DNA from: Marsupella aquatica
Taxonomy: Eukaryota; Plantae; Marchantiophyta
Assembly (NCBI GenBank): GCA_973895155.1
Contig: OZ316891.1
Span: forward strand, 15,221,037 to 15,285,036
Reading direction: 5' to 3'
Length of the DNA: 64,000 nt
The translations under genes were made by a program, and so were the position numbers. Each line of letters begins with the position of its first letter. Positions within the stretch are counted from its first letter, which is position 1. Positions 11,245-55,904 of the stretch are shown piece after piece. The notes beneath the pieces were generated by a model. That model saw only the letters and a program-made list of their open reading frames with translations, did no database searches and was not told the origin of the DNA.

Positions 11245-11255
11245 CTATATATATA
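11245..11255 (-). promoter_or_regulatory. Probable TATA box of FAD2
   Basis: Minus-strand TATATATATAG about 60 nt upstream of the FAD2 ATG. Confidence 0.5.
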
Positions 11256-22498: not shown

Positions 22499-22989
22499 CG
22501 ACAGCGTTGGAATCGCCGCTGGGTTGCGGCAGTGGCAGCAAGGGATCCAAAGGTATCCGCGTGGGAGGCCGCCCATGAAAGAGAAATAAGGTGGCCGCCT
22601 ATTGTGCCAGAGGAGTGAAAGAGCGGCGGATAGAATTAGGTTAGGGAAGGCACATCGCTTGGTAGAGCGACGGTGGCCATTGCCCCATTCTTAGGACAAA
22701 TTGTAAAGTATTTAAACCCCTGGACTATCGTGGGCAGAGGGGGAGAGCATTGCTCAGTTATATGGTACATATTCTTGCAAGCATAATTGCGTTGGTGTGT
22801 AATGTTCTTTTCCCGTTCTGATAAGTCAATCTTTATTGAATTTACAGTAGAGAATGTCGTTGAGGAAGTCAAGTTTGGATGCTCACAATAGTGACAACAG
22901 GAGGAGATTTTCCCCTGTATTGTAGTCTATCCGGACCAGCGTCAAGAGCGGACAAGCTCAATTGTTCTTATTGACTAGGTGTCTCGCCT

Positions 22990-23235
22990 CTCGGGGGGGT
23001 CACTTCCATGGAAGTGGCATATTATGTGCGACGAAGTATAGGGCCATTTAAATGGTTTTGGCGGAAGACTTATTAAGTTTTCTATGGAAATATAGGGTTG
23101 TTTAATTGCAAAATGCATGTACGTGTCATCACATGATTGGTGCTGTACAACTTTCTAGAAAGTGACTTAGGGGGGTCATAAATGACCCAAACCGTCGCAC
23201 GTGATGTATGACCCTTCATATAGTGACCCCCCGAG
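22990..23235. mobile_element. MITE, 246 bp, 8-bp TSD, same family as 38281-38553
   Basis: TSD TCTCGCCT on both sides. TIRs CTCGGGGGGGTCACT / AGTGACCCCCCGAG. First ~80 bp align with the 38281 copy. Confidence 0.85.
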
Positions 23236-28974: not shown

Positions 28975-29420
28975 TGGCACAAAAGATGTTGAGATGAAAA
29001 GAGATGTCAAGGTGAAAAAAGATGTCGATGTGAAAAAGTTGTTGATGAGAGAAAAAGATGTCAAGGTGAAGAAAAAATTTTGGGTGAAAAAAATTGTCGA
29101 TGAGTACAAAGGATATCAAGGCAAAGAAAAGACATTGGTGTGAAAAAAGTTGTCAATGAAAGAAAAAGATGTCGAGGTGAGGAAAAGAAATCAAAGTGAA
29201 AAAAAGATGTTGAGGAGGGAAAATATGAAAAGATGAGGAAAACATGTCGAGGAGAGGAAAGATGTCGAGGGTGAGGGAAAAATATAATGGTGAGGTAAAG
29301 AACACAAAAAAATGCTCGTGCATTGCACAAAAGATGTCAAGGTGAAGAAAATATGTTGAAAGGAGAAACAAATGTCAAGGTGAGGCAAAGTTGTCGAGGA
29401 AACACAAAAAATGCAAACAA
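28975..29420. repeat. Degenerate AAGATGTCAAGGTGA array
   Basis: Same motif family as 18050-18550. Confidence 0.75.
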
Positions 29421-31663: not shown

Positions 31664-32689
31664 TCAGAGGTCATAATCATCGAGAGAGGCCATGAGATGA
31701 GGGCCTGGAGAGTTTCGAGCACTTGCACGAGCACTGCTTCGATGACTACGAGTGGGTGGGGTCTCCCGAGGGTCAAATCCGGGACGCCCGGGGGAGTGGC
31801 TTCGAGATGGGAGTCGAGATGGCGCTCGTGATGAGATTCGAGACGCATTCCTTGATGGAATTCGAGGTGACCCACCTCTCGGAACATACCCACCTCGTCC
31901 ACCTCTCGATGGACCTCCTATGAGAGGGCCAGGGCTCCCTGCTCCGGAGATGGACAAGTTTGCTGCGCCTCGGAGTCGTTGTCCCTTCGCACCGATGGCG
32001 TGTCTGCGGCCTCTAGATCTCCGTCTTCTCTTTCGTCTCCTTCTATGGCGTCGTCGTCCCTTTCTGTGAGATCTCCCTCTCCCCTTCCTATGGCGTCGAG
32101 ATCTTCCTCTTCGTCTTCTTCTTCTTCTCCTTCGTCTACGATGCTTCCTACCTCGCTTTCTTCCCTTACTCTTCCTTCCTCTTCTTCTCCTCCTTCTTCG
32201 CCTTCTCCCTTTTCTTCTCCCTCTCCTCCTTCTGCGGCCTTTGCGACGGTGGTGTCGCCTTCGTCGTCTTCTAGCTTCAGCGATTGGCACTAGTTTGAAT
32301 CCCCTTCTGGTCTTGATGATCTTTCCTTGTTTTTGGAGCTTTTTGAGGACTGCGTTCAAACGCCTGGTGCCGGTGCTGCTTGTCAACGCGAATCCGTAAC
32401 TGTCCTTAATGTCTTGCTTTATACTGTTGATTGGGCAACCTCCCTTCTTCTTCAGCTTTGCAATGGTTGATTGCACAGCATTTGTGAGTCCTCTTGCGCT
32501 CTTTACATCAGCAGGATGCCTGGCCATTGGCCCCACGGAGCCCTCGTTGGAGGCACTGTCATCTCGACTAGGACCTCGGGACCGTGTTGAACCCATTGCA
32601 GATGATCCGTCAGATGAGTAGCCTTGAAACTCAGATTTTTCAGAATAAGCGCTTGAAATGCTATGACTCCTCTTTGGCCGAGACTTCAT
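31664..32689 (-). CDS. Histone H1-derived protamine-like sperm nuclear basic protein, paralog 1 (~341 aa from ATG MKSRPKR)
   Basis: Ser-rich N-terminus, then a linker-histone globular domain (AVQSTIAKLKKKGGCPINSIKQDIKDSYG...LNAVLKKLQKQGKIIKTRRGFKL). Followed by a ~90-aa poly-Arg/His/Gly/Lys tract, SR-type repeats and an acidic end (DDYDL). The ATG at 32689 aligns with the paralog start and is preceded by an acceptor-like TGCAG. Confidence 0.88.
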   Translation of the reverse strand: MKSRPKRSHSISSAYSEKSEFQGYSSDGSSAMGSTRSRGPSRDDSASNEGSVGPMARHPADVKSARGLTNAVQSTIAKLKKKGGCPINSIKQDIKDSYGFALTSSTGTRRLNAVLKKLQKQGKIIKTRRGFKLVPIAEARRRRRRHHRRKGRRRRRGRRKGRRRRRRRRRGRKSKGRKRGRKHRRRRRRRRRRRGRSRRHRKGRGRSHRKGRRRHRRRRKRRRRSRGRRHAIGAKGQRLRGAANLSISGAGSPGPLIGGPSRGGRGGYVPRGGSPRIPSRNASRISSRAPSRLPSRSHSPGRPGFDPRETPPTRSHRSSARASARNSPGPHLMASLDDYDL

Positions 32690-35600
32690 GATCAACTGCA
32701 CAATATCTTTACTTGCTAATACCAGACCATGACTTGTGAGATCCAATTAGAGTGATGAAGATAATTTACAGTGACTCTGGAGTAATCTAAGACGGGAGCA
32801 TAGGTCCCAAGAGACAGGACATTTACTTATATGAACTATGGAGAAGAACATTGCAGATTGTAAACGGCATTGTGGTCAATCTTGGATTTTGACAATCTCT
32901 TAACTTTAGACCACACAATCTGGAACAAAGAAACGGCCCCCCTCACGGAGACCAGGAGTTTCAGCAATGAGGAACTCGAAGGGGCACATATTGACCACTT
33001 TTGGCATGAATCAACGCACACGGATCACAAGGTCGAACCCCGCGACTGTTTGCATCAACCATCATGCCTTCTCATTGTAGCAGCCATGGATCAATCTTAC
33101 GACCTTTCACCGCAAACACCATCTACTGTAGTAGGTCGAAAGGGTGAGTGAGGATTTTTTGCATTCGAGTGAATGTTATTCGAAACAACAAATGTCTTAC
33201 ACTTGGAACGAAAAGTTGCAAGTCATGGCAAAGGATACCATCAGGGGTACCGTTGGACTACGAACTTGCTGAGCCTCGTAGGAATGGTTGGACGAGCCCC
33301 CGGACGAGCCGATTCGCCAACGGAAAATCCAGTTGACACAATTTGTAGAATGGTTGGACGAGCCGATTCGCAAACGGAAAATCAAGTACACAGATTTTGT
33401 AACGCAAGGGACGAGGTTTCTCACCAAAGTAAACGATAACTATTTTTGAGAAATGAAATCTGAAACGACGTTGCACGAGTCCAAAGGCACCAGAGTAACA
33501 ATGGACTTAGGTGTACACATGTGAGCTGAAAACTTTGCGTGTACTCGAAGTGGTAATCCACTGTTTAACTGCTCTATTGCAATAGTTGAAGGCACCCATT
33601 TCACTGGTAGGAAAAACCCAAATTCACTCTACAGACTATGGAATCCTGTCTGAGACAACCGACTCACCTATTCTTCCACATTTCTATCATCAGCCGTCTA
33701 ACTCGGTTCAGATTAGACTTGTGGTGAACGGATTCAGCTAGCTACACTGTACCTGGTTTAAAGTGGGAGTTACTTTCTTGAGCATTCACTGGAATTGTAG
33801 ACTTCTACTCCTGGGACTATGACGAATTTATTTGCGTCTTAAAAAAAAAGGCCATAATGTTGTATAAAAACATGAACACCTGCCGTGAACCAAAACCGAG
33901 GTCATCAACAAGAGAAACACTACGACAGTCGCATATTGCATTGGAAAAATAGTCAGTCAACGACCGTAAACCCTGCCGTAAACATGAAAACTGTGCATAC
34001 ACGAACACATTGCAAAGAATGAAATTTCCAATTCCACCAATCCATCAAATGAATTTTTCTCGTAAATCATGTCATACGGAGGTACCTAGCTTGTACAACG
34101 CCTACAAGCTGTTTTAATTACTTCTTGAGGCAATTCTCTTCACTAACAAGCAAATGTGTATAATGATTCCAGAAACCTCTGTAGTGTAATAACTTGTGCG
34201 TCGAGCCATGGTGTGACTAGGTCGTTTGGTAGGTAGCGTTTGTGCTTACTAATTGAAGCAACCAAATTGTAACCTCAAGTTGGGCTTAGGTGGGTTTCCC
34301 AGTGCTTCAAAAGTAGGAAATGGCATCAGCAGTTACCCATGCCGGATGCCTATCTACTGTACGACGTAACACAAGTCAGGAACAGATAAAAATAAGTATT
34401 CCTCATTTAGCAAGGAGATCAAGTTACCATACTGATCAGCAAATTCTATCTTCGGAAGAGAAGCCTGTAATCTTGACCAGCATCCCTCTACAGGACTTCA
34501 AAATCAAAATCTCAAAGATTAAACAATGACCCAAAAATGTGATAGAACTACGCAGAGACAGATTCAGATGCGTGCAGAGAGTTCGGAGAAATTTGTGGAC
34601 TTGACATGGAATCATTTACCGCCTTTTGATATGTACTGTAGAGCACAACCAAGTTTCCCATCAGTCACTACTTGTGGAGCGGGAGATTCTATGTTATTGG
34701 CAACAAGAAATTGGAAATTGGACATTTAGAGTGTAGTAGGGTTTCTGTTGTTGGCTTCCCATGATACGTGTCCGCACGAAACTAGTCACGTACTGGAGTC
34801 ATTTCGTGTTTGTCTTCACCTCAGACAGTACCTGCGCTACTTAATAACACGTCCTGACTATTGACATCGCTGTTCCGCATTAACTAAGACCATATGACAA
34901 TGGTGGTACATCCAAGGCAACTGCTGCTCTTGCCTCCTATTCATCTTCGTTTGTTTCGATGCTGGAGCATCTCACCGGGATATTTTCAGATTGTCTGAGT
35001 TATGTGCTAGCATGTGCTAGCAGATTACTTCATATATGATTCAGTTACCTCCAATCCCGAAGGAAGCATTGCATATAGGAACATTGGAGAATGACTAGTA
35101 GAAATCACATTCACGTTTCAATTGGTTAAATGAATCGATTCAAATTATTGGCTACGTCTTTGTATGAGATCGCCACTATTCCTCATTGAGCACAGGAGTG
35201 AGATTACCAAGTTTGGTTTCAACAGCGATCTGATTCTGTTTGCTTGGCGAGGCCAATGGTGAGCCGAAGTGGTTGCAAGATGTCTTGAATAATAGTGATC
35301 AACGTGATCTAAAGATTGAGCATCTCGTTGTCGCTAGCAGGGCTCCAATACGCGACACTCAAACAGTGAGGGAAAATTATGATTTGGACCCAGGCCACTC
35401 TTCCCCGAACATGGCGCTGTATTTGAGTAGTGGACCAGCGTGCGCTTTATTCTAATAATGCATACCCTGGGCGTTGTTCGACTTTGACTCTTTGTTTGGG
35501 AATGGTTTTACTTGTGTTCTGTTTGTAAATTTACATTGTGTTCTAGTATTGACATTTGAGTTCTTGCCGCCTAAATCTAAAGGAGTCTGGCTCACTATAG

Positions 35601-36364: not shown

Positions 36365-36518
36365 ACTCGAACACAACATCGAACTCAAACACAACGCCCT
36401 AGCACTGTGTTAAAGTGGCGTTGTGTTTGCAAAAAACCATATTTATTAGTGAAGAGATCACTTTTTTCCCATTTTCAAACACAACACCCGGGCGTTGGTT
36501 GTGTTTGGGGGAAGACGG
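36365..36518. mobile_element. Right arm of the same Tc1/mariner-type MITE family
   Basis: AACACAACGCCC subrepeats ending GGGGGAAGACGG|TA. Confidence 0.7.
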
Positions 36519-36577
36519 TAGGGTTGCTTGAGAAAGTATATGGTCAACTGTACTTCTGGACTTATGCCGGGAGACAT

Positions 36578-36711
36578 TGTCGTGCGCATACATATCGCTA
36601 CACAACATACATCGCTTGTCACATACATCCAAACATAGTCACACTGCCATATCACAAACACAAGAGAATGGAATACAAGTGGAACTCATGTCCACACATG
36701 TCCAAAACCCA
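36578..36711 (-). repeat. Repeat A, terminal copy (134 bp)
   Basis: Direct repeat of 37045-37178; forms the element's 3' terminus next to the TSD. Confidence 0.93.
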
Positions 36712-36714
36712 CAA

Positions 36715-37042
36715 TAATCTCCATACAATCGGCACAACGATCCCGATCAACAATACCCCATCGATCCCGCACCGATCCGATCACACACGTATGTCAAGCC
36801 AACGCACCTTGCACTACTCAAGGAATCCACGTTACACAAGCGGAGCTCACAGCCACCATAGCCACTCAAGCTCCTCTCTCTCCAAGGCTCAACATTGAAA
36901 GATGACCTTTCAATGCCTCACAAGTGAGAAGTACCCTCTCACACAAACCTGACGGAACCTTATCGGCTCCAATAGCACTCATACCAAACGTACATACTCT
37001 AATAGCACGATATACTACTACACTACTCAGAATGGTGTGACA
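36715..37042 (-). repeat. Repeat B, 3' copy (328 bp)
   Basis: Direct repeat of 46611-46938. Confidence 0.93.
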
Positions 37043-37044
37043 GC

Positions 37045-37178
37045 TGTCGTGCGCATACATATCGCTACACAACATATATCGCTTGTCACATACATCCAAA
37101 CATAGTCACACTGTCACATCACAAACACAAGAGAATGGAATACAAGTGGAACTCATGTCCACACATGTCCAAAACCCA
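37045..37178 (-). repeat. Repeat A, inner copy (134 bp), directly after the PPT
   Basis: Matches 36578-36711 with about 3 substitutions. Confidence 0.93.
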
Positions 37179-37355
37179 TAATCGCCCCCCTAGTTGGGAG
37201 TAAGGTCCCCTAACTCTAGCTAGCCATGAGTTCTACAAGGTTGATATACACCTTTTTAGGTGTGAAGATCAGGAGGCCGGGTGCAAGTAAGCCCCATCGA
37301 TCACCTACCTGCAATCCATATCTGCCAAGAGAACACAAATGATAACTAGTCGGCT

Positions 37356-38900
37356 TCACCGACACTGAGGACACAACCATGATCCACTAGGAATCACCTG
37401 CAATGGTGGTGTCAAACATGACATGTGCCATCCTCTAGAACACTTATCACAAATAGTAGAACATAGTAGCTGCTCCTTGAGCAGATCCACACAACATACA
37501 TTTCAAGCCAGCACGAACATGTGCCAAGCTTGGATCTACTGTACCATCAATGTTGGGAAGGTGACATGGTGCACAGTTGCGCACATGATCCTTCCAAACC
37601 ATACCATCGCGTCCCTCCAACATCAGGACACCAGAAGGCAACACTTCACGCACACGTAAGATTGTCCGGCCTGCGGTCACATCAAGTGTTGTGGGTGCTG
37701 TCTGCTGCAAATAAACATAATCACCAGGATGAAATCGTCGAATGCTTGCACGGTAACCTCCTCCACGAATAGTGGCATACCTCAAAGTATCACGATGTTG
37801 GGCAATGGCAAGGTTGTCAAAAGCCATGGGCATCACTCTCTGAAATACCCGTGCTCTCTCTGAACACACCTTGACCCAAACATCAGGATCATCCAAGTTC
37901 ACAACTGGTGCAGCATCACGACGAATAGCTGCTGGCAAATCTGGCTCTCTACCATAGAGCAAAAAATAAGGTGAGAAGGATGCAAGTGATGCTTGCCGAC
38001 TGAAACGGTAGCCCATAGCTAACCAAGGTAGCTGGAGATCCCAATCTCCCAGATGACCAACCTGCAAGCCATACTTGCGCAATCCTCTCTTCACAGTTTG
38101 CACAACTCTCTCAGCTAATCCATCTGCCTTAGGATGATCACGAGAGGTAGTACGATGATCAATCAAAGCTTGTTCACACAAACTCTCAAACTCTCCACGG
38201 AACTCAGTTCCCTGATCAGTCAACACCTCAGCTGGTGCTCCAAAATGACTGAGTACACGATCCAAAAATGTAGCAGCAACCTCGAGGGGTTCACTTCCAC
38301 AAATGTTGACATCATGTGCGAACAAAGTAAGGGGCATTTTATTCATTTTAGGGAAGTACTTAGAAGTAGCGAGGAAGTAAGTAAGGGGGTAACAATTCAA
38401 AAAGTGCCACTTGTCATCACATGATTCATTGCTTGCCACATGTCAATAAATGATTGATGGGTTTTTTGAGCCTCCTATTCCTTTTTGAGAGAGTGATTAA
38501 ATAGGGGCGTTTGCACATGGTATACAATAATTTCATAAAGTGAACCCCCCAAGGCAGCAACTCCTCCACTGGCTTTATCTGGCAACGTCACTAGCTCAAT
38601 CCACTTGGAGAAGTGCTCCACCATGACCAAAATATACCGATTATGACGTTGGGTAAGAGGTAATGGACCAGCAAAATCCAAACTCCAACGATATCCCAAA
38701 CCCATGATCGACAACGGGTGCAACTGGGGAGTGGGAGCATTAAATGATGCTCTCACTCTATCATATACCACACACTTAGCTATCAATTGTTGGACATGAG
38801 TGTGCATACCACGCCACCAATACTGTCTGCAGCAAGCTGTAAGTGCACTTTACACCAAAGTGACCCAACTCCTCGTGCGCATGTCGCACCAAATGTACTC
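37356..38900 (-). pseudogene. DDE integrase with C-terminal PHD finger (MITE-interrupted, frameshifted)
   Basis: HEELGHFG zinc-binding region, WSLDFAGP, VLTDQGTEF, GLAERVVQTVK. Then CMLC and, after a frameshift, ICDKCSRGWHMSCLTPPL...WLCPQCR*. Confidence 0.9.
38281..38553. mobile_element. MITE, 273 bp, 8-bp TSD, inserted in the integrase
   Basis: TSD GCAGCAAC (38273-38280, 38554-38561). TIRs CTCGAGGGGTTCACT / AGTGAACCCCCCAAG. Removing it rejoins GVAA-TFLDRV. Confidence 0.88.
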
Positions 38901-39279
38901 TCTGTGATGGTTTTGGGACCACCAACACTCTGTCATCATGCAGTACTGTCAAAAGATGGTTTCCCTCCCATCAAAACCTCTTGGCTCTCTGTAGAACCCT
39001 GTCACGTTCCTTGGCATCAACACTACCAACAATAGAACCACTACGCAGATATTCCAACACTCTCACATCATTGTGAATATCTTGCTGTCCAGTAGTTACC
39101 TCACTAACATCCACATCTGAAGACTCATCATCCACTCCATCCAATGAGGTAGAGTCCACAGATCCACTGTATGCTGACACCCAACAAAGAAAGGCAGATG
39201 CATGCCATCCTGGCACCATCTCCTTATCTGACTCATCATGCCATCTGGCTCCAGTCTCATCTTGCTGACTGGTACATGG

Positions 39280-39644
39280 ATTGCGGCTTAATCCATCTGC
39301 ATCCAAGTTCACTTTTCCAGGCCTATGCACCACCTGGAAATCATACTCCCTGTAACAACAATGTCCATCGTGCAAGCTTTCCTATAAGCTTGTAAGACTC
39401 CATTAACCACTTAAGAGGCTGATGATCAGTGATCAAGGTGAAGGGGTTACCAAACAAGTAGCAACGAAAGTGTGCAATAGCCCACACTGCTGCCAAACAC
39501 TCTCCCTCATAAGAGCTATACTTAGCCTCTGCTGAATTGTTTGATCTACTGGCATAAGCCACAACAAACTCATTCCCCTCATCATCCTTCTGAGCCAGCA
39601 CTGCTCCAAGTCCTACTCCACTCCAATCAGTGTGTAGCTGAAAT
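39280..39644 (-). pseudogene. RNase H of the gypsy-DNMT element (interrupted upstream by a MITE; frameshifted near its end)
   Basis: FQLHTDWS..GLGAVL, VAYASR, YSSYEGECLAAVWA, ITDHQPLKWL, YDFQVVHRPGKVN.DADGLSR. Confidence 0.93.
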
Positions 39645-40282
39645 GGCCTCATTCACAATTGGGTGTACCTCGCAGGAACCACTTTTAGGACTCAAAAACA
39701 TACTTTTTTAGTGAAAAATGACTTTCGTAACATGGAAAAAGGTTCATCATGATTTTATCTGAAGACATTTAAGTCTATTTTTTTCACAATACTATTTTAC
39801 ATGGTGTAACCTACCTCACCATGTAGATACATCAAGTTTTCAACTATTTTAAGGGATCCTGTTATTGATGGCCCTAAATAAGCCAAAATTACTGATTATT
39901 TTTGTCCTGTACATAAAGGTTTAGTGTGTGTCACTATTTAAGTTTTGAAATATAAGATTATGCTATTAGTATGCATGCTTTGGTAAAATTTTATATTCTA
40001 AAATGCATTTTTTAGAGTCCTTTTGAGTCCTGAAATGATGTGACCCGTTGCGTGACAAGTCCTTTTATCAATCTTTGAAGGACATATAAGGAAAGCTTCA
40101 AAGTCTCAAATGCTAGATAGTTTAATGAATGTTACCAACCTATAGGATGTTTATTAAGTATAGTACATCAAATTTTCTATATCATCTCATTACACCCTAA
40201 AAATGATATCCTAAAGCATAATAAACTATGGTCACTTTTGAGTGTGACGTTCCTTTTGGGTCCTCCAATTGTGAATGAGGCC
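39645..40282. mobile_element. Non-autonomous DNA transposon, 638 bp, 4-bp TSD (Sola1-like?)
   Basis: Perfect 18-bp TIR GGCCTCATTCACAATTGG and TSD AAAT. Excision restores SGRPF-QLHTDW of the host RNase H. Confidence 0.88.
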
Positions 40283-40345
40283 AAATGGTCTGCCTGAAAT
40301 GGGTCTTCTCAAAAGAGGGGATGATGCCAACCTTTGCTTCAACTC

Positions 40346-41362
40346 CTAAAAGGCATGCTCCTGGTCATCACCCCAAATCCATTCCTGATCCAACTTAGTG
40401 AGTATGGTCAAAGGTTTAGCAAGCTGGCTAAATCCTTTAACATACCTCCTGTAGTAGCTCGCCAATCCCAAGAATGCACGAACTCTACTCACATCAGTAG
40501 GACAAGGAATCTGTGTAATGGCCTCCACTTTAGTCTGTTGTACACCCAATCCCCTTGGGTATATAGTGTGGCCCAAATACTCAATCTGGTCTTGGAAGAA
40601 CTTACACTTGCTAGGATGGAGCTTCAACCCATGTGCTCTCAATCTCTCCAACACAGTCTGCAAGTGTTGCTGATGTTCTTCCACAGTAGAAGAATAGACC
40701 AAAATATCATCAATATAACATCTGACAAAATCCAAACCTGCAAGGATTCGATCCATGACTCTCTGGAACTCAGCTGGTGCATTCTTCAACCCAAATGGTA
40801 AGAATAACCACTGATACAAACAATTTTTGCCATAAGAATCAATCCCCCAGAATGTTGTCTTGGACCTGTCAGCATGCCTAATTGGAAGCTGATGGTACCC
40901 TGCCCTCAGATCCAATAAACTGAAAACCTTTGCATGCCCCACAACATCAAAGATCTCCTCAAGTGTGGGCATGGCATATCTGTCAGATTTTGTCTGGCGA
41001 TTAATGGGTCTGTAATCACCACACATGTGCCTATCTGTGTAATTGCCATGCACATCCTTCTTGGCTGGCATCACTGTGGCAGATGCATACTCCCCATATG
41101 AAATCTCCACCAATCCAGCCTCCAACAAATCTTGAGTTCTGCTTTGAATCAGAGCTCTCTCCATGTCACTGTAATGGTATGGCCTACGAAAGATTGGCGC
41201 ATCACTAGCCAATTCAATCTGAATACCAGGACCCTTTAATGTCCCCAAATCTTTCATACTAAATGCAAAACAATTCCAGTAACTCTTCAGGAATCGATGC
41301 ATGCGACGTCTCTCCTCCCTTGTCAACTTAGGGCCAAGCTGTGGTTCCCAACTCTCCACCAA
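40346..41362 (-). pseudogene. Ty3/gypsy reverse transcriptase
   Basis: CGDYRPINRQT, FSLLDLRAGYHQ, LPFGLKNAPAEFQRVMD, YIDDILVYS, KCKF, YLGH. Confidence 0.97.
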
Positions 41363-41559
41363 ATCCCTAATATCTCTTTGTAGGGTAGAAGAGATATCCG
41401 ATGATTGCTATTTAGCAGTAGATTGAGCAGTCCCTTCCTGCTCAACAATCTGTCCAGCCTTGGCCAATCCTGCCATAGGTCCATGGATTGTCTGCTCGCC
41501 CTCAGCTGTGGTCAGTACTGTCTCAGTGGACCGCAAGCTCACCAAGGGACAATCAGTAA

Positions 41560-42560
41560 TTCCAGCAGAGCGCATTTGCAACTGTTCAGCTACTCCCAAG
41601 CTGATAATCCAAGTCAAACAATTCAGATCCATTGCTTGACCAAGAACCTGGCGCCGCAAACCCTCTGACACAGAGGCAACTGCAGTGGTGCCAGTCAAAA
41701 ATCCCATAGCACGCTCTCTCTCATCAGCAATAGGCTCCACTAACTGCTGGAGAGCCGTGTCCCACACAAGTCCAGGGCCACCTCCTCTGAATGCATATGA
41801 AGCAGAGTGGCTTACAAGAGTGGGTAATGCACAACGTGGGCGCCCAACTGCATTGACCACTGCCAATGGAGGTCTATCAGGTTGGGTCACACCCTGTGCA
41901 CGATGCCCTGGATCCAAAATATCATCCACCACTAAGGCTGGTGAGCGTGGAATGCTGTCAAATGCGCGCTTTAGCACCTCACATGGGATCAAATTGATCC
42001 ACCACAAGCGTGGACGATGTGCACGAGAACCCACACGTGCAGCATCCAATAACACAACAGGTCCAATCCAAGACCTCACCTGGTGAACACTGGCAACAAT
42101 CCGACTATGATCATCACCTAACAATGGCACATTCTCCAAAATGTATGCTGGAGACTGTGTTTGATGTAGCTGGAGATGACGCAGCACCCATAACATCTCC
42201 CAAAATAGTGCAGAGCGTGGATCATGAAGTCCATGCCCAACGCCAGCTCTAGATTGGCCCTAACATGGCCAACCAGCAATCACCAAATCAATGGGGCCAA
42301 CACGATGCAGATGATCCGCCCCCAGCAATGAAATATCAGCAGGTAGTGCATGCTGATAACCACGAGCAGCATCCACTAGCAGCAATTGTGGATATCTATC
42401 CACCAACATAGCCACATGCCGCAATGAGACCCTCCGTGCTGTCTCATCTGTCTCCACATACAAATAACGACGCACAAGAATTCTTGCCTGAAGAACAACA
42501 GCCAATCTAGTGCTAATCCCACCAAAAAGATCCAACAAACAAATACCCTCCGCTGGATAT
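41560..42560 (-). pseudogene. DNMT3-like C5 cytosine DNA methyltransferase domain within pol (one nonsense codon after catalytic PC)
   Basis: Motif I LLDLFGGIST, II YVETD, IV IDLVIAGWPC*G, VI YILENV, VIII RAHRPRLWW, IX ERERAMGF, X LGQAMD, all in linear order and one frame. Confidence 0.9.
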
Positions 42561-42697
42561 TGCCAAGCAATAGGAGTGGTATCCAATGGTGAAAGAGTCA
42601 CAGGTCCATCTGCAAGAGATTGCTCTGCTCCTAACTGTGGTGTAAAAGCATGACGCCATGCATCATGTACCAATCGTACTGTTGCCTGTGGCAAGGC

Positions 42698-43528
42698 CTA
42701 TGCAGTGCCCCACACTGGTGGCACAACACTACCAACAGGTAATCCTTGCATGATGTGCTCCTCATGAGACTCCTCCAATGGTGGAACATCGGCTGCACGC
42801 GCATTACCCTCAATCAAATCATCAGGTCCAGCAATTACACCACTGAATGCTGCCAAAGACAATGGTGTGGATTTAGCGCCTCCCACAGGTCCACTAAATC
42901 TCACTGGCAATTTGCTCAATCGAGCATCTCCTGACTGCCAATCAGGTCTATATGACACTAATTCCTCCCAAAAATCAAGAATAAATCCCATGGGGTAGAG
43001 CACTGTACATCCCACCAACACATCATATGACTCTGCCTTAGTCAGAATAGCTCGCGCCTGTATCTGTGAGCTATCTGTGGTATGACCTTCCTGAATCCTC
43101 AAATCAAGAGGTCTCCTGGTAATGTGTTGTGTAGGTGTAGGTCCCCCCAATGAAGTCTGAATGGGAAAGGGACAATTCTCCAAATCCTCTGGACGCAATC
43201 CCAATCCACGTATGACAGACTTTCCCAACATCAAGGGCTGAGCACCAGTATCCAGTAACACCCTCTCTGGCTGGTATACTGCTCCAGAAGGCCCAACTAA
43301 TCGGAAGATACCACTCCGATTATCCAATGATACAACACTAGGTTTAAACCTAGTCCTCTCAAATGCAGGGCGTGCTGGTAAATCCACCAACCTCGCTCCT
43401 GCTGCATGCCATGTCTCACTAGTAGCAGTAGGTGGCATGGTCTTCACTGCATCAACACTGCAAGTTGCTTCTGCATGGGAAGCAACCACTGGAGTGTCCT
43501 CACAGAGTGTAGCTGCCAATCTAAACAC
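42698..43528 (-). pseudogene. Retropepsin-like aspartic protease region of pol
   Basis: VLLDTGA catalytic motif and YDVLVG C-terminal motif. In frame with the downstream DNMT, separated only by a TAG. Confidence 0.85.
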
Positions 43529-43641: not shown

Positions 43642-45381
43642 CTATTCTGCCAACTTACCCACATCAGGGTTTGTCCGAACCGGGTTCATAGAGGCAGTCT
43701 GAACTGTCTCTGACAATGTAAAAGACTGAGGAAGCTTTGTCTGTCGACGTGCATCTCCCCTCTGTGGATCTAACTCCACTATTGCTCCTCGGGGCTCAAG
43801 AGCTTTGGCTGCCCCACGTGTCAAAGCTGCTGATGCATCAATATGTGTAGTGCCACACATGAATCCCATGGTGGCAAGGTCTCCATCAGCTCCATAAGAT
43901 GTGGAAGGTCCATAGGATATTGATGCCCCATCACCAGAAGTAGGTCTCACCTGAGAACTAGCCATGGCAGCTAGCTGTTGCTCCAATTGAGCAATCTTAG
44001 CATCCTTTGGATCTATGGTTACAGCAGGGGCAGCGTCACCTCCCTGTCTCCCTGCATGTGGCATGCCACGACCACGTCCACCGCCTCTACCTCCTCCTCC
44101 TCTTCCCTGATCATGTGTACGGGATCCTCCTCTCCGTAACTCAGGATGGAGTGAGAAACACCTATCCTTGGTGTGTCTAGGAGCTCCACAGTGATCACAC
44201 TGTCGCTGATCAGGCGCTGATGCTCCCCCTGATCCTCTATGATCTGGGCAATATCTCTGTGCATGATCCCCACCACAGGTCCAACATCCTGACTGCTGTC
44301 CAGCATAAGAGGGCACAGATCTCTGGCTGGTAGACTCTCGTGCAGTAGGCTTCTCCCTCTGGCTCTTCCGTGCAGTAGGCTGTGGTGTGGATGTGGATGC
44401 AGCCTTTGGTGCTTCCTTGGCAAATCCGGAAGTCACCACCTTCTCATTCACCATATTGAGCTCAATGTGCTCAGAAAGTGTAAAAACAACTGCTAATGTG
44501 GGATCTGCATCCCTAAGCAGAGTGACATCTCTCACTCTGCGTCGCAATTCTCTGTCCAGAATTGCATACCAAAACTGGACTGCTTGAGCCTCTGTCACTC
44601 CCTTGGTGACAGTGATCAATCTGCGCATACAAGTGTATGCCTCACGTAGACTCTCTCCAGTCTTGCGCTGGAACTCTTGAAGACCCTTCAACTTATCAGT
44701 TCTTACACCCTGATAGTTCTGCTTTAGTACCTCAAAGAATTCCACCACAAGGTTAAATGCTAGCGCAACTCCAATTCCTGTCACAATCACACCGGCAGGA
44801 GTAGCGGTGGATGCTGCTGGAGTGCTGCTGGTGGATGGTGTGCCACTCTGGCTAGTGCTGCTAGAAGAAGCAGCAACTATGGCAATGGGTTGGGCAGCCG
44901 CACTAGTGCCATAGGTGATGGTCACGTAATTAGGCGACCAATGCTGCCTCCATGCCTCAATCTCAACCAAATGAGCCTTCCGAAACTCATGGTAGTCATC
45001 CATGGGTGGCCCCTCCAAATGCTGAAATAATCCCTTCCATGCCATGAAAGGGGTAAACAATGTGGCGTTACGCAATGTCTGCATATCGCACCACGTATCA
45101 AACTCCTGGATGAAGTCATCCAGATCAATCGTGCCAACTGCACCAGAGTATCGTCGTGGGCCCTTTGTAGCCCCGTACATCTCGTCCATATCCCACAACA
45201 AAAGTGCAACCACCTGATGATAAGGAGAATTGGTCACTGAGTCCTCATCAAAATCACTGTCTGAAGCTGCACTGCTAACTGCTACCAATGCTGCTGGCCG
45301 AAACTGCGCCCCACTCCGAGTGAAACCGGTCCGTCGTCCATCGGGTAACCCAGCAGCACCAGAAAAATCCGTGGTGACCAA
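43642..45381 (-). pseudogene. Retrotransposon Gag (capsid-like region plus two zinc knuckles)
   Basis: FQRKTGESLREAY gag motif; CWTCGGDHAQRYC and CDHCGAPRHTKDRC knuckles; RG-rich segment. Offset from the pol frame near 43640. Confidence 0.85.
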
Positions 45382-46610
45382 CCCTAACCTAATCTATGTG
45401 CTAACCCTAAGGGCAGTCTGTCCCTATCAGCACCACAAGCACTCACCATGGTGTGTTGGACATCACTCCAACATCACCAGGAGAAAAATACACAGCACAC
45501 TAGAATGTCCGGTTGCAAACCCGGATCACTCCTATGGAATCAAGTGCCCATACCGAACCAACATGGCGCATAAACAAGAAACAAGTGTGGAGAGGATCCA
45601 ATCAACAAGAATAGTCAAACACTAACTCTCCACACCAAGAGTGATCACACATTGATCAAACAAATATTTATAATGTTCAATGAAAGGCCTTCATAATAGG
45701 CTTCATGATGTCCCAATGTTATAGATGAGAAACCATGCAGAATTGGTTCAATCTGTGTATTTAGATGAACTCAGAACTATCAAAAACCTCTAAAGAGCCT
45801 CTGATTTGGCCCGAAACAAGGCTCTAAGCAAACCGGAAAGTGTATAAAGCCCCATGGCGTTTGAATCTAAACAACAAGTTGTGAAAACTTGTGTGTACAC
45901 AAGGTGGGATGAGAACTTGCCAGTTAAGCGCTTGCGGGTGGGAATAGTCCCGGGATGGGTGACCTCCTCGCGCTCGACCTCGTGCTTCCCCTCGTGTTCA
46001 TGACCTGGAATAGCCCCAGGATGGGTGACCTCGACCTCGCGCTTGCTTGCGCTCGCGATGGGTGACTTCACGCTCGCGGTTGGGAGCACTTTCGGGATGG
46101 GTGACCTCACGCGTCACCTTATGCGCGCACAATTGTGTGTGTACACAAAACAGAAGTCGTCGGGCTCAGAAATGGCAACATTTGCCACTCGAAAGTAGCA
46201 ATTTCCTTCACAAAAACGGCAACGTCGATGGCTCTCGACCTCTGCAAACCTGTTGCGCATGGTTCTGGGACATTTCGTGAGCGTCCCTTGACAATAAAAC
46301 ACTGCGAGCACTCAAAATTCCAACAGATTTGTCCACAAAACAGCAATGCGATACAAGCAGCAACCTTCGGCCATCTCTTTCCAGATCTAGACTCCGACTC
46401 AATCCAGATCCAACAACGTTAAGCTTGGCCAGAACCAGATCAAATATCAACAGAGTACTCAAACAATAGAACCAACGATCCAAGAAACATGAATCCGCGT
46501 CAAACACAAATCCAATTGATTCGAGCTACCACGAACCGTCACCGTCAACAACAAACTCAGACTGAGCTTTTGTCCGCACAACAGAGTTTGAAGCTCATGA
46601 TCTTTCAATG

Positions 46611-46938
46611 TAATCTCCATACAATCGGCATAACGATCCCGGTCAACAATACCCCATCGATCCCGCACCGATCCGATCACACACGTATGTCAAGCCAACG
46701 CACCTTGCACTACTCAAGGAATCCACATTACACAAGCGGAGCTCACAGCCACCATAGCCACTCAAGCTCCTCTCTCTCCAAGGCTCAACATTGAAAGATG
46801 ACCTTTCAATGCCTCACAAGTGAGAAGTACCCTCTCACACAAACTTGATGGACCCTTATCGGCTCCAATAGCACTCATACCAAACGTACATACTCTAATA
46901 GCACGATATACTACTACACTACTCATAATGGTGTGACA
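46611..46938 (-). repeat. Repeat B, 5' copy (328 bp) of the gypsy-DNMT element
   Basis: Matches 36715-37042 with about 7 substitutions by eye. Confidence 0.93.
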
Positions 46939-47039
46939 ACATAGAGGAGACCATATATCTCGCATCTAACTAGTGTCATAAAGTGTAATCAAAAGTTGTG
47001 AATCTAGCTACTCTCTAGGGTGAAGACTCTAGACCATAA

Positions 47040-47457
47040 TGTTAGGTATTGCTCTTAGTCTTGTGACTTATGAGCTAACCACAATTAGGTTAACTCAGGT
47101 TAGGACTTAGCTAAGGTTAGCGGTAGTGCTGTTGTGTATATTGCCAGGGCTGGTGCCAGCCCCTGGTGGGACTAAGGCTCATTATTATGGAGCTAGTTGA
47201 GAGATAGGGAGAGCTAGTGCTGTGGATGCTTGGTATGGTCGGTCGGCCTAGAGTGTAGTAAAACTCTTGTGTGTTCCCGTGGACGTAGCCTCATGACGAG
47301 GTGACCACGTATCTCTCTATGTCGACTCTTGTGTGTTCCCGTGGACGTAGCCTCATGACGAGGTGACCATGTATCTCTCTGTGTCGACTCTTGTGCGGGC
47401 TCTTGTGCGTTGGATGGTTCATGGGCTTGCGGTTGCGATTGTCGTCTATGCTCAACA
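47040..47457 (+). mobile_element. Solo LTR related to the copia element (opposite orientation)
   Basis: TGTTAG...CTCAACA aligns with the reverse complement of 55354-55697. 5-bp TSD CATAA. Internal ~62-bp tandem duplication at ~47264-47390. Confidence 0.92.
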
Positions 47458-50151: not shown

Positions 50152-51171
50152 TCAGTCGTCATAATCATCATCATCTGGGGCAGCCGATTCCGACACTTTG
50201 GCCCTTTTGCTCGCTCGCTGGTACGCCGGACGAGCGCGCGCAGGCGATGGATTTCGTGAAGCAAGCCGCGATGCAGCTCGCGATGGCAGCCGAGACGCAG
50301 CTCGCGATGGCAGCCGTGATGCCGACCGAGATGCGAGCCTGGACGCGGTCGTCGATGGCGGAGAACTCCCCTCAGGCGCAGAACCTCCACCTCCGCCCTT
50401 GACCGGACCTCCGGGCAGAGGTCGCTCATTCCCCTTGAAGGACAACTTCGCCACTCCTCTCCGAAGCTTTGCAGTTTTGCCGGGCGCATCTGCGTGCTTG
50501 CGGCCATGTCGTCTTCTTCTCCTCCTCCTCCTCCTCCTTCCATGGCCTTTGCGGCCCTTCCGTCGTCCATGTCTTCTTGTCCTTCGACGACGACGACGAC
50601 GACGATGCTTCCTTCCTTTCGCTCTTCTGAATTTCCTGCGTCTTTTACCCCTTCCTCTTCTTCTCCTCCTCCTCCTCCTCTTCCTGCCTTTATGGCGGTG
50701 ATGCCTTCTCCGCCTCCTCAGCTCCGATGCCGGCACGAGTTTGTATCCTTTGGTAGTCTTCACCAATTTCCCGTCTTTCTGAAGGTTTTTTAGGACGGTG
50801 TTGAGGCGCCTAGTGTTGTGAGCGCCAGTTAGGGTGTATCCATGGCTGTCCTTAAGGTCTTGCTTTATGCTTTTTACCGGGCACCCGCCCTTTTTCTTCA
50901 GCTTGGCAATTGTGGATTGAACGAGTCGTGTGAGTCCAGACGTGGTCTTGGCCATGCTTGCGATGCTCATTTTGGATGCGGAGCCACTTGGCTGGTATGA
51001 ACCATTATCGTCATTGCTGTCGTATCCCGTCGCATCGGTGGCATAGCTTGCTCTCGAGTCCTGCGTGGATGTCATGGATGCACCCGATGCACCTGACTGG
51101 GACGAGTAGCCGTCGGACTTTTCTGACGAAATGCTGGAAGCACTAGGGCTCCTGTGACGTCGGGACTTCAT
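50152..51171 (-). CDS. Histone H1-derived protamine-like sperm nuclear basic protein, paralog 2 (~339 aa from ATG MKSRRHR)
   Basis: Same architecture as paralog 1. H1 globular domain LVQSTIAKLKKKGGCPVKSIKQDLKDSHG...LNTVLKNLQKDGKLVKTTKGYKL, poly-Arg tract, repeated ASRL(A/P)SR, acidic tail DDDDYDD. Confidence 0.88.
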   Translation of the reverse strand: MKSRRHRSPSASSISSEKSDGYSSQSGASGASMTSTQDSRASYATDATGYDSNDDNGSYQPSGSASKMSIASMAKTTSGLTRLVQSTIAKLKKKGGCPVKSIKQDLKDSHGYTLTGAHNTRRLNTVLKNLQKDGKLVKTTKGYKLVPASELRRRRRHHRHKGRKRRRRRRRRGRGKRRRKFRRAKGRKHRRRRRRRRTRRHGRRKGRKGHGRRRRRRRRRRHGRKHADAPGKTAKLRRGVAKLSFKGNERPLPGGPVKGGGGGSAPEGSSPPSTTASRLASRSASRLPSRAASRLPSRAASRLASRNPSPARARPAYQRASKRAKVSESAAPDDDDYDD

Positions 51172-54100
51172 GGCTACAGGGCCACTTTTGACTTGACTGG
51201 GTCTCAGAATCGAGTGACGACGGACAAGGTTCCAGAGCTCAGGCTGCTCAGGATGTCCAGGAGTCAAAATATTAGATGTACGATTTGGATTCTGACTATT
51301 CTGTCTTTCGAGAATTATTCCGGTTAGACCAATCGATATACAGGGTCATCTACATACCAGCCGAGGGAATTAAATTGAACGAAACTTGGAGATGGAGGTT
51401 CTAGGAATCCTTTTGAAGAAAGAGAGCCTGCTCCATGAAGAAAATGTCGACACCTTAGACAAACGTCGAGAAAGACATTGAATCATACCCTCAGCAAAGG
51501 CCATGGAGAAGTGCAAAGTTTAGACCTACAGAGGCCCACCGAATTGCCATGGAGAAAAATCTGCCACTGGACCAACGACAGGACAAATGTGGACAAAGAC
51601 ATCGAGTGATCTCTTCATGAAAGGGCAGTTCATGGAGAGGTGCAAACTTTGCAGCTCTAGTGCCACCGACGAGCACACGGATCAACCTCTACACTCATGC
51701 GGCAACATCACACCTTTTCAAACTATCATCCATCGTGCCTTTCCAGATCTGAAAGACATTGAATCGCCAGGTATGGTACTTTTTGGCCAATGAAATCCAA
51801 ATTGTCCCGTAGGATTGCAACCTTGGTAACTTCTGCAACATGTTGACAGTGTAGAGAGAATGTTCCTCAAATCAGGAAGGAAAAAACACAAGTCGCCATG
51901 TCAATGTCAACTTCTGCAACGTGATGACAGTGAGAGAGAATGTGCCTCAAATCAGGAAGCTAGAAGCCATGTTAATGAAATCTTTCAGGAACATGTTTAA
52001 TGTTCTTATCCTGAATGACTGATTGTCTGAATTACCAATCCAGTGTTTAACATCGAATCGGTTTCACACTGACCCCGCCTCCTCCACAAACTTTATGTCC
52101 TTTTCCTTGTTTTATTTTTCCATCGACAACAGAAAGAAGAAGATCCACTACCTGAAATGATATCTTTGGAGCTTGCACACAATACGGCCCTTTGTTTCTT
52201 TTTCCCTGGGAAACCCAAAGAACATCTGAGATCATCTTTGGAGCATGCAACACCGAAGCCCCCTTTTTTTTCCCTTGAAAACCGAAAGAAAATCAGCCCA
52301 TAGGAGATGATCAGCTCTGGATCACGCACCATTGTAGGGTAGCCCGTGAGGGTGGACATACTCGGGGATCAACTGTAGGGTAGCACATGATAGGGAGTCG
52401 ATCTAACAAAGGACCCCACCAGGAGGGAGAGAGGGTTACATTAGGGTTCCAGAGTGCCCAACAAGGGGCCAAGGAGACAACCAGTTCTCCCCACTGACAC
52501 CTCACCCAACTTGCAGGCATATACACCCTCCACTGACTTCCTTTACATCCTGATGTGTAAAGCTAGCCTTGTGGAGTGGGGTTGGTCACACTCCTCATAT
52601 TGTGGTCCTTGCTTTCCGTGTCTCCTCAATTGGATGTTGTAAGGGTTTGGACATCCTAGCATGTAAAGCTTCCCCCCTGCAATGGGGGGGTTGCCTCCCA
52701 CTCCAACTCATGTTGTACTCACATAAGACTAAGGACCCCAGTACAAATGATGCCTGGCTATGTCAGCTCTTGCAACTTCCTCATGTGAACAGAATACGAG
52801 TTCCCTTCTGTAGACAACATAGGACTAATTGGAATGATGCCTGGCTTTGTGGAGGTCTTGCAACTTCCTCATGTGAATAGAATCTGGGTTCCCTTCTATA
52901 GGCAAGCCACCTAAATTGTTCAGAATGAGTATTTCTCAATTGTTATTATCCAAGTTTTGGTTTGTGCTATGAAAGCCATTCTTTGTGTTTGTGAAATTGG
53001 ATGTAAACCACTAACAAGTTATTACTTCTTATTTTTTGCTTTTTATCCTTGTTTTGAGTAACCCCTTCACATTAAACTTATTCCCAGTCTGAGATTGACA
53101 CAAAAGGGAACACACAATGCCCCCATAACCCTTAGCCCCTAAACCCTAAACCCCCCAAACTACCCAATATTTACTAACGTGTCCCCCCAAACAAAATGAT
53201 TTATCAATCCGCGCCCCATTTGTATTTGGGTAAGTATTAACTCGTATCTGGGTTCCAGTTGCCATGTGGCAAGTTGCTACTAGTTAACTCACCGCGACCC
53301 CTTTGGCCTCTAAACCCTAACAAATGCTTAACAAACGTGAAAACTAATTATGGGCAAATTAAAGCTTAACTCAGCCTAAATTTACAACCTCAAATTCTTT
53401 GTCCCTCCTTTCCCACCCGGACCTCCTACCCATTTCCCCTCTCCCAAATCCAACTCAATTGTTTCTCTTAATTACCCTTCAATCTTTTTCATCTGATTTG
53501 TTTGACGAGGGTAATAGAACATTTGTGGGAAATTCTTGTTCTTCAAATTTGTTTTTAGCACGTAGGTCCTCAAAGGTAGGCATCAACATAAAAAGTTCAG
53601 CCCAAACAGACTGAGACGACAAAAGGCTAATTTGTTTTATGGATCATACAATGTTGACATTAATCAGTACCACAAAAACACAAAAGAACAAGCGACTAAC
53701 TTAACGTTCTATCGGTTTAAAGTGCACACTGTCATTGTTAATTACCAACATCTGATCTCATCTGTCAATCAACATGGACCTTTTCTTGAGACAATTGGGG
53801 CATGGTCCTCTTTGCTAGTCACTGATCAATTGAATATGTAGATCAATCAGATCTAACTTATGGTTTATAAGTTAATGAATTAAATTGAAGAAAATAGTTA
53901 TTATAATTCAAAAAGCAAATAAATGGTTATACTTGGTTACTATTTTGTACCGCTATTTGTAGGTGGGCATAGTAATTGTCATTTTCCCCAAATTTTAGTG
54001 TCTAATCATTTTTTCTGGCATCAAGGCAAACACCAATTGTGGTATTGTTTGTTACTGCAAGTACCATTGTTCATGTTTGTGGTGGAAATTGATGATGTGG

Positions 54101-54589: not shown

Positions 54590-55060
54590 TGCCTCCCCTT
54601 TTGCTTCCCTCTTTCTTGGGCACAGAAAGCACTATTATTTGAAAGATGACCACTATAAAAAGTGGTTGGATTTTTTGTTACATATGTCAACTAGCCAGAT
54701 GCATATGCATTTGCACAAAAGATGTTAAGTTGAGAAAAGATGTGAGTGTGAGGAAAAGATGTCGAGATGAAAACAGATGTTGAGATGAGGAAAATAAGTA
54801 GAGGTGAGAAAAAGATATCAAGATGAGGAAAAATGGCGAGATGAGAAAAAATAAGATGTCAAGGTGAGAAAAGCTGTTGCGATGAGTAAAAGATAGCCAA
54901 GTGAGAAAAAATATTGAGGAAAGAAAAAGATGTCAAGGATTGAAAATATGTCAAGTGTGAGATAAAAATGTAGTGCAAGAGAAAGATGTCAAGGCAAGGT
55001 AAATATGTAAAGGAAAGATAATTAGGTCAAGATTAAAAAAAGATGTCAAGACAAGAGATG
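54590..55060. repeat. Degenerate AAGATGTCAAGGTGA array with flank similar to 17170-17360
   Basis: TTGCCTCCC.TTTTGCTTCCC and TAAAAAGTGG are shared with the 17.2-17.3 kb region. Confidence 0.65.
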
Positions 55061-55353
55061 TATAAGTTTTGCAAATAAATGTAGTTGTTGAGACATAGTT
55101 ATGAGGGATCCCAAGCATACACTTGTTTATGTTCATGTTCAATAACTTGATGCACATAGAAATTGGAGTTGTGAGATAATTACCATCACATCATAAAGTC
55201 CAAGCACAACCAAGTGACAGGCTAGGTGATAGGGAACAAATTCTGTTATTTTAATTTTTTAATTTTTTGAGAAATAATTATGTTACATATTTTATTATAT
55301 TGAATTTTTTTCAAGTTTTTCAAACTTGAACTATATTATAGTCCACCCAAAAC

Positions 55354-55697
55354 TGTTGAGCATAGACGACATTCGCAACGGCAAGCCCATGAACCATCCA
55401 ACGCACAATAGTTGACACAGAGAGATACGTGGTTCACCTCCACATGAGGCTACGTCCACGGGAACACACAAGAGCTTTACTGCACTCTAGGCCGACCGGC
55501 CATACTAAGCATCCACAGCACAAGCTCTCCCTATCTCTCAACTAGCTCGGTAACAATGAGCCTAAGTTCCACCAGGGTCTAGCATCAGCCCTGGCTATAT
55601 GCACAATAGCACTACCGCTAACATTAGCTAAGTCCTAACCCGAGTTAGACTAACTGTGGTTAGCTCATGAGTCACAAGACTAGAGCAATATCTAACA
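55354..55697 (-). repeat. Copia 3' LTR
   Basis: TGTTGAG...CTAACA, direct repeat of 61626-61969. Confidence 0.95.
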
Positions 55698-55904
55698 AAC
55701 TCCCCCTTGACTCTTGTCTTGGGGACTGGACTAAATGCTATCATATGGAATCCTCAGCGGGAAGTTCTTGACAATCACCAAACCAGGTCTCCCCCTAAAA
55801 ACCACAAGGGTTAACTAAGGGTTAACTAGAACTAAGCCGTAGCCTAATAGGAATGAGTAATCCATATACAAATAGTCACACATTGCTAAATAACTCTACT
55901 TGCA

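Follow-up and report, generated by a model that had tools for sequence, protein, structure and literature searches.

A Gypsy retrotransposon of a liverwort with a DNMT3-like methyltransferase domain and a conserved stop before reverse transcriptase

The window, by which we mean the whole 64,000-nucleotide stretch of the Marsupella aquatica assembly analysed here, contains a decayed Gypsy element of 10.4 kb on the minus strand that carries a DNMT3-like methyltransferase (MT) domain between protease (PR) and reverse transcriptase (RT). Judged by its conservation, the in-frame TAG that separates this domain from RT (41408-41410) is inherited and not damage, and the layout read from the sequence is Gag-PR-DNMT, stop, RT-RH-IN-PHD, with the second part presumably reached by readthrough. 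We lean, with modest confidence, towards a model in which a Gag-PR-DNMT ORF1 ends at the conserved stop, the DNMT would be packed into the particle and methylate cDNA, RT-RNase H-integrase-PHD would be made by readthrough, and integration would proceed from end-joined circular cDNA.

The domain and the element that carries it

The motifs of the domain occur in canonical order: DLFGG (I), YVETD (II), GWPC (IV), ENV (VI), RAHRPRLWW (VIII), ERERAMGF (IX) and LGQAM (X). The permuted order typical of DRM was absent from the domain both by motif reading and by profile. With the frame repaired by an X at the internal stop, the translation of 41519-42571 passed the PF00145 search (E 1.1e-8; 35.4 bits vs a cut-off of 22), and the best match of the window domain among solved structures was DNMT3A (E 2e-9). 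We also built a family profile from 23 relatives and compared it with solved proteins; DNMT3A scored 8e-21 and the DNMT3A/B/C entries 8e-21 to 7e-16, as against 1e-8 to 4e-7 for DRM-type entries (DRM2 4e-7), 1e-5 for bacterial HaeIII/HhaI and about 1e-3 for DNMT2. An AlphaFold model of the domain (pLDDT 72, with residues 213-266 unreliable) gave DNMT3 chains for all Foldseek matches listed, the best with an E of 5.5e-14. In the ESM Atlas, the relative P0122 fell only in generic PF00145 clusters, of which the top one was mostly Streptophyta. By sequence comparison and predicted fold, the domain is a non-permuted DNMT3-type C5 methyltransferase and we regard this identity as secure; the preliminary description, which had called the motifs non-permuted and DNMT3-like rather than DRM, was right on motif order, profile ranking and Foldseek alike.

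The order PR-RT-RH-INT with a DDE integrase is that of Gypsy elements, and a PHD finger lies downstream (Table 1). The knuckles of the gag-like region were read from the sequence, as the region has no Pfam match, and Gag and PR are separated in the window copy by a one-base frameshift near 43643, where most sister contigs differ by one base. Contigs exit the element at 36578 into unrelated flanks, 8-28 per run, in three of four public runs.

Table 1 Features of the element in the window, from its 5′ to its 3′ end
Feature	Position	Strand	Basis or remark
Left 4-bp target-site duplication	46939..46942	-	identical four bases beyond right end at 36574-36577
Repeat A1, 5′ end, begins TG; likely promoter and transcript start	46612..46938	-	97.9% identity to A2 over 328 bp
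Hairpin in A, 9-bp stem, 5′ arm a near copy of the primer-binding site	46789..46811	-	sequence
Predicted transcript 5′ 12 nt (self-primer)	46788..46799	-	12/12 complementary to 46600-46611; start inferred
Predicted self-priming primer-binding site immediately past A1	46600..46611	-	complementarity and folding
gag-like region, two CCHC-type knuckles	43645..45189	-	ORF; 60% identity to N-part of Marchantia Mp_4g09160
Aspartic protease (LLDTGA)	42950..43330	-	PF13650 E 0.0017, below cut-off; 83% identity to P0122
DNMT3-like C5 cytosine methyltransferase domain	41519..42571	-	motifs, PF00145, profile, fold; private stop after motif IV Cys
Conserved in-frame stop closing ORF1, context TAG CAA TCA, readthrough-type	41402..41410	-	conservation in related loci
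Reverse transcriptase (YIDD)	40349..41407	-	PF00078 E 1.7e-33
RNase H region, split by nested insertion	39344..40345	-	PF17917 E 4.9e-36 on 39341-39652
Nested 638-bp element in RNase H, 18-bp terminal inverted repeats, 4-bp duplication	39645..40282	.	sister contigs skip 642 bases
Integrase, zinc-binding part and DDE core, frameshifted, interrupted	37520..38950	-	PF17921, PF00665, each below cut-off on separate pieces
Nested 273-bp element in integrase, imperfect inverted ends, 8-bp duplication (presumably hAT-type length)	38281..38553	.	sister contigs skip 281 bases
PHD finger at integrase C-terminus, split by frameshift near 37455	37359..37505	-	PF00628 E 5.5e-8, 33.2 bits vs cut-off 24
Polypurine-tract-like site immediately 5′ of B1	37183..37191	-	kept in moss-type family
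Repeat B1, ends CA	37045..37182	-	97.1% identity to B2
B1/A2 junction CA-GC-TG, palindromic; candidate internal integrase attachment site	37041..37046	-	sequence
Repeat A2	36716..37042	-	repeat comparison with A1
Repeat B2, element 3′ end, ends CA	36578..36715	-	repeat comparison with B1
Right 4-bp target-site duplication	36574..36577	-	matches left duplication

The ORF pieces within 40346-43528 share one minus-strand frame, with TAG codons at 42698-42700, 42260-42262 and 41408-41410 and a further one in the window copy at 40346-40348. Four of these pieces had been described as a single frame split by single TAGs; the common frame stands, but two of the piece ends given fall a few codons short of those found by the ORF tool (41408-42259 and 40346-41407). 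The stop at 42698-42700 was found in 0/52 related loci and that at 40346-40348 in 0/45, both counts coming from locally shifted alignments; the one at 42260-42262, which follows the catalytic Cys, occurs in 13/72 related loci and is absent from about 96-100% of sister-contig depth. These three nonsense codons are private to the window copy, which also has frameshifts near 43643, 39348, 38823 and 37455, two nested insertions and one altered residue in motif I. The window copy is dead.

The two A repeats of this copy differ at 7/328 positions and the two B repeats at 4/138, and by this divergence of 2-3% the insertion would be young in evolutionary terms, a figure that carries no absolute date. 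The terminal repeats of about 98% identity reported earlier are confirmed as to identity (97.9% over 328 bp), but they belong to a split-repeat end structure and are not ordinary LTRs. Fairly recent activity, likewise proposed, is moderately supported: the small repeat divergence speaks for it, and the private stops, frameshifts, insertions and altered motif I residue speak against it. Public runs show many diverged copies of the element, with 6,942-30,497 element-matching contigs per run in four runs, a number that is not a copy number. Among the 16 runs listed, none was an RNA run, which speaks neither for nor against transcription.

The window also holds an ORF for a delta-12 fatty acid desaturase (FAD2-type, 10043-11335) that is 83% identical to its Calypogeia fissa counterpart; identity falls to 73% in Marchantia, 70% in Riccia and 66% in Physcomitrium. 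This bears out the land-plant setting proposed from the sequence and makes a leafy liverwort the likely host. Two linker histone H1 genes (31664-32746 and 50152-51345) lie about 18 kb apart on either side of the DNMT element. A Copia-type element with gag-pre-integrase, rve and SH3 and with 97% identical LTRs occupies 55354-61969, and a related solo LTR, inverted, is found at 47040-47457, about 100 bp from the 5′ end of the DNMT element. Short repeats with common ends, possibly MITEs, occur at 7641-8196, 11789-12505 and 36367-36522, the last just outside the 3′ end of the DNMT element. Three degenerate arrays of a 19-bp purine-rich repeat were also seen (18030-18560, 28970-29420 and 54690-55070); between the first two lie about 10 kb of broken ORFs without Pfam matches (18814-26863), possibly an unrecognised large element.

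Relatives, selection and the conserved stop

Protein searches returned 173 near-length matches (at least 120 of them listed) and 53 longer ones. Named relatives among the matches listed were Marchantia polymorpha, M. paleacea, Calypogeia, Riccia and three Sphagnum species, and no vascular plant, hornwort or Physcomitrium name was among them. One family member, P0029, is filed in NCBI under a bacterial MAG (Candidatus Obscuribacterales), which is likely contamination. Among metagenome loci, of which the best 80 of 144 were compared, RT lies downstream of the domain in 62/69 with room for it and PR upstream in 41/55, which makes the domain a family trait and not a one-off capture; a frame open throughout was found in 0/34 of those carrying both PR and RT. 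In the linker, the closest of these loci match a protein of Sphagnum fallax, and they are therefore termed moss-type; several of them are one insertion seen twice.

Comparison of related loci with the window gave a dN/dS of 0.175 for the MT domain (37 loci; range 0.14-0.23), 0.124 for RT, 0.114 for integrase and 0.179 for Gag, values obtained with dS near saturation and from pairs that are not independent of one another. A dN/dS of about 0.18 indicates that the DNMT domain is under purifying selection.

A profile search recovered 586 clusters (50% identity) at E below 1e-30, and two layouts were distinguished in the best 150 of them: type I, in which Gag-PR-MT precedes RT, and type II, RT-RH-MT-INT-PHD; a further 44 of the 150 representatives were MT-only pieces. 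We reconstructed an MT tree of 149 rows, from which we excluded domains of <270 or >420 aa as well as pieces that could not be classified, apart from three with names, and an RT tree of 69 rows. Types I and II fell on opposite sides of one branch in both (SH-aLRT 85 in the MT tree and 97 in the RT tree), both trees being unrooted. The window groups with Marchantia, Calypogeia and Sphagnum with a support of 100 in trees that leave out host DNMT3. Ten clusters of each type were looked up for names: type I includes Klebsormidium nitens and Closterium (four of its ten carried names), and type II includes Scenedesmus (the one named cluster of its ten). The DNMT of the window and that of K. nitens lie on the same side of the dividing branch (SH-aLRT 85), again in an unrooted tree without host DNMT3. 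A neutral one-off capture of a host DNMT3 by the window copy or its family would be compatible with trees built without host DNMT3, in which nesting within host DNMT3 is not directly excluded; the 586 clusters, the separation of the same two architectures by MT and RT, and the low dN/dS nevertheless largely refute it, and we consider it very improbable.

Type II is very diverse (P0160-P0173 and many of P0175-P0316, with P0186 from Scenedesmus sp. PABB004), often replaces the P preceding the motif IV Cys by E, and has no description in the literature searched. The window element and the moss-type loci L001-L063 share about 66% identity in MT and mostly about 70-80% in RT, and the FAD2 of the window and that of Physcomitrium share 66%; a likeness between liverwort and moss-type elements that equals or exceeds that of FAD2 could reflect strong constraint or horizontal transfer among bryophytes. 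A swap of RT between lineages was considered and dropped, RT identity being mostly about 70-80% in the close family.

In the frame of RT, a stop stands at the equivalent place in 46/51 related loci with an adjacent RT, and it is followed by CAA in all but one of the 46. Located by motif alignment, the position in the 51 loci holds TAG in 33, TAA in 14 and a sense codon in one, with three not alignable. In the protein around the stop, the window and moss-type families cannot be aligned with each other. P0122 (85% identity) terminates at the same residue as the window ORF, and Marchantia Mp_4g09160 (1278 aa) and Mp_8g17980 (1248 aa) are Gag-PR-MT models ending 56 aa past the domain. In the branch that includes Klebsormidium, proteins likewise stop 5-13 aa beyond the MT match, the K. 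nitens record being marked partial; some algal relatives have no stop at the DNMT/RT boundary (P0208, P0251). We take the window context, TAG CAA TCA, to fit the CARYYA leaky-stop motif, and the moss-type context has 5/6 bases of CARYYA and an ATG three codons after the stop.

The preliminary description had joined PR, DNMT and RT in one polyprotein, a claim that is not supported as worded, since different families share the TAG that separates DNMT from RT; given this conservation, the DNMT closes the Gag-PR ORF and would be joined to RT by readthrough only. Since the moss-type ATG lies three codons past the stop, reinitiation or splicing could substitute for readthrough; we prefer readthrough as the route to Pol, with these two as alternatives. 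The conserved stop shifts the expected dose of the enzyme from the scarce level of Pol to that of Gag. In our model, the DNMT would be packed into the particle at Gag-like amounts while RT-RNase H-integrase-PHD comes from occasional readthrough; protease would release the DNMT, which would mark the cDNA before integration, such that new copies arrive methylated, in a CG and/or CHH context if the analogy with DNMT3 holds. Related DNMT3 domains of dinoflagellate DIRS elements methylate CG in yeast, according to the portion of PMC5890265 available to us.

Alternatively, the enzyme might act in the nucleus on chromosomal DNA or chromatin and not on particle cDNA, either silencing the element itself or steering it together with the PHD-bearing integrase. 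A PHD finger closes the integrase in the window and in 32 of the best 150 representatives (full RT-RH-MT-INT-PHD), the DNMT of type II elements adjoins integrase, and the slowing of transposition is among the options in the discussion of PMC5890265, as far as its available text shows. In the window family, however, the DNMT is tied to Gag-PR and not to integrase, which favours particle loading and action on cDNA, and we consider a nuclear role unlikely.

Another alternative is that the element retains the domain for a role without catalysis or one directed at RNA; it might bind nucleic acids in the particle, for example, or make m5C in RNA. The Klebsormidium domain produced no DNA methylation in yeast, a result its authors call inconclusive (PMC5890265, in the text available), many relatives have E for P before the motif IV Cys (AGWEC in 36, GGWEC in 9 and AGFEC in 8 of 149 domains), and CG depletion in the loci is not specific to the DNMT family. 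On the other hand, the G-x-[PSE]-C pattern of motif IV is present in 140/149 family domains, the motif IV Cys and ENV are retained in 140/149, and the nearest solved proteins are DNA enzymes, with the DNMT2 match far behind; such a role appears improbable to us. CG depletion had also been considered as a sign of self-methylation. The codon-boundary observed/expected ratio is 0.14 in the window element vs 0.59 in the neighbouring Copia element, but across loci the ratio in pol is 0.34 for the DNMT family and 0.29 for Gypsy elements lacking the domain (4 loci), which means no stronger depletion in the former, and this indicator was rejected.

Split repeats, predicted self-priming and integration

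The ends of the window element are arranged as A1...purine tract-B1-GC-A2-B2, that is, as split repeats of the form A...B-A-B. Ends of the TG...CA type with 4-bp duplications were found in 6/6 independent two-ended copies (window, L009, L038, L051, L055 (=L058) and L062), which marks them as the product of a DDE integrase. The joint between B1 and A2 has the form CA-NN-TG and reads CAGCTG in the window, L002 and L015; it is decayed or variant in five other loci of the family, was not seen in the more distant family L053=L054, and is too decayed to read in the most distant loci (L057, L060, L061, L073, L076, L079). A1 runs up to the primer site and B1 begins at the purine tract, and the A2-B2 joint is exact in the window and in 4/5 loci; the remaining one, L051, has a short insert and two purine-tract bases and looks like what end-joining would leave. 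Right ends of the B-A-B form also occur in other, more distant families (L048:14589-17213, a truncated piece, and L053:9107-9565).

The 12 nucleotides that start at the last base of A1 perfectly complement positions 140-151 of A, with a mean pairing probability of 0.93 if transcription starts there; as a control, 0/9261 interior 12-mers had a reverse complement in A. Primer and site have other letters in the moss-type family than in the window family and pair in both all the same. In 6/15 moss-type A1 copies the best match (11-12 pairs) lies at the primer site, and of the others five have deletions there, two have an altered binding site and two match better elsewhere. A TATA box lies 29-31 nt upstream of the predicted start in moss-type copies, and the window has none. 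The hairpin in A that resembles the primer site has the same layout in the moss-type family, with different letters. From these features, self-priming from the 5′ end of the element's own transcript is predicted.

The split repeats and the palindromic joint suggest that the element integrates from a circular cDNA, formed by end-joining and opened within the LTR, an integration route unusual for LTR elements with a DDE integrase. Transcription would start inside A1, and its first 12 nt would prime minus-strand synthesis in a Tf1-like manner; ordinary LTR-type copying would then yield a cDNA whose true terminal repeat is B+A, between polypurine tract and primer site. The ends of this cDNA would be joined, and integrase would cleave each strand behind the CA of the CA-GC-TG palindrome in the upstream repeat, leaving processed-looking ends and the order A...B-A-B. 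This route is supported by the coincidence of the repeat borders with primer site and purine tract, by the exact A2-B2 joints and the insert of L051, and by the lack of fixed differences between A1 and A2. A symmetric circle would also be expected to produce the mirror form A-B-A...B, and B precedes A1 in 0/18 left ends (15 independent), such that integrase would need a site preference for which we have no explanation.

One may postulate a linear route, in which extra strand transfers (B2 copied from RNA, as in DIRS elements) are followed by integrase trimming at terminal CA-GC-TG sites, with no circle involved. This scenario accounts for the missing mirror copies, and the second primer-site copy in the A hairpin could prime such a transfer; it leaves the borders of repeat identity exactly at purine tract and primer site without reason, however. 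Moreover, a comparison of 15 A1 with 6 A2 copies showed no fixed differences, and the L051 junction appears end-joined. We regard the linear route as a serious rival, though less likely than not. Right ends consisting of B only were found in nine loci, and such repeat-less A...B copies were considered as proof of one-LTR circles; this was rejected, since L038 and L050 resemble one insertion with and without A2 and show that B-only ends can arise later by recombination.

Returning to the circular route, its combination with the preceding results gives a tentative reading, on balance more likely wrong than right in its entirety, of an old green-plant Gypsy lineage that self-primes, loads a DNMT3 at Gag levels and integrates via an end-joined circle cut at a palindrome. 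If true, the lineage would span two architectures from chlorophytes to liverworts and mosses, including the model plant Marchantia, and would offer a natural case of circle-junction integration by a DDE integrase, with a pre-methylated insertion.

Relation to known elements

The closest described system is KnitGypsy-Dnmt3 of Klebsormidium nitens, a Gypsy element with a DNMT3-like domain (de Mendoza et al. 2018, PMC5890265). Going by the available part of that paper, the two elements share Gypsy domains, an intronless and non-permuted DNMT3-like domain, purifying selection and DIRS-like split repeats, the last given in the legend of Fig. 4c. The preliminary description had related the window element to the Klebsormidium one, and this relation is supported: the K. 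nitens protein GAQ93235.1 (P0275) has the order Gag-PR-MT, like the window, and its domain lies on the same side of the MT tree. The window element differs in residing in a land plant and in having a conserved stop between DNMT and RT, in the same frame, whereas the DNMT of KnitGypsy-Dnmt3 is in one ORF with RT and RNase H; PHD finger, self-priming site, target duplications and palindromic joint are features of the window element without mention for KnitGypsy-Dnmt3 in the available text of PMC5890265. No description of a land-plant or chlorophyte Gypsy-DNMT3 was present in the literature searched, of which supplements may list bryophytes and which covered few subscription papers, and none of its conserved stop, self-priming or integration route in the parts available. 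Within those sources, this kind of element is already known from one alga, and its land-plant occurrence, the stop, the priming and the route suggested by the ends are additional.

What benefit a transposon draws from carrying a silencing enzyme has been a question since the report of 2018, which concerned hosts that are difficult to manipulate. The long Gag-PR-DNMT gene models in Marchantia polymorpha, a plant with methylation mutants and genetics, make it testable. Such copies also raise the number of DNMTs counted in bryophyte gene sets, and their ends would likely be mis-called by standard LTR finders.

In Tf1, the 5′ end of the element's own transcript primes minus-strand synthesis. Like Tf1/Sushi and the plant Tcn1 chromoviruses, as described in the accessible portion of PMC6317226, the window element has no tRNA-type site and its own 5′ end complements sequence after the 5′ repeat. 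These chromoviruses carry a chromodomain at the integrase end, whereas the window element has a PHD finger, split repeats and a DNMT. PAT and Ngaro are DIRS elements with split direct repeats. The split-direct-repeat DIRS element SymbioDIRS-Dnmt3 (PMC5890265, in part) resembles the window element in its A1...B1-A2-B2 ends and methyltransferase domain. DIRS elements use a tyrosine recombinase, however, and the window element has a DDE (rve) integrase, TG...CA ends and 4-bp target duplications. Finally, the DAM-LTRs/EpiLTRs (bioRxiv 10.64898/2026.05.21.726589, which in its available part cites 'streptophytes (Gypsy-DNMT3)' as prior work only) are likewise LTR elements that carry DNA methyltransferases of their own together with a chromatin reader, but their enzymes are adenine methyltransferases or DNMT4-related domains, as opposed to the DNMT3-like domain described here.
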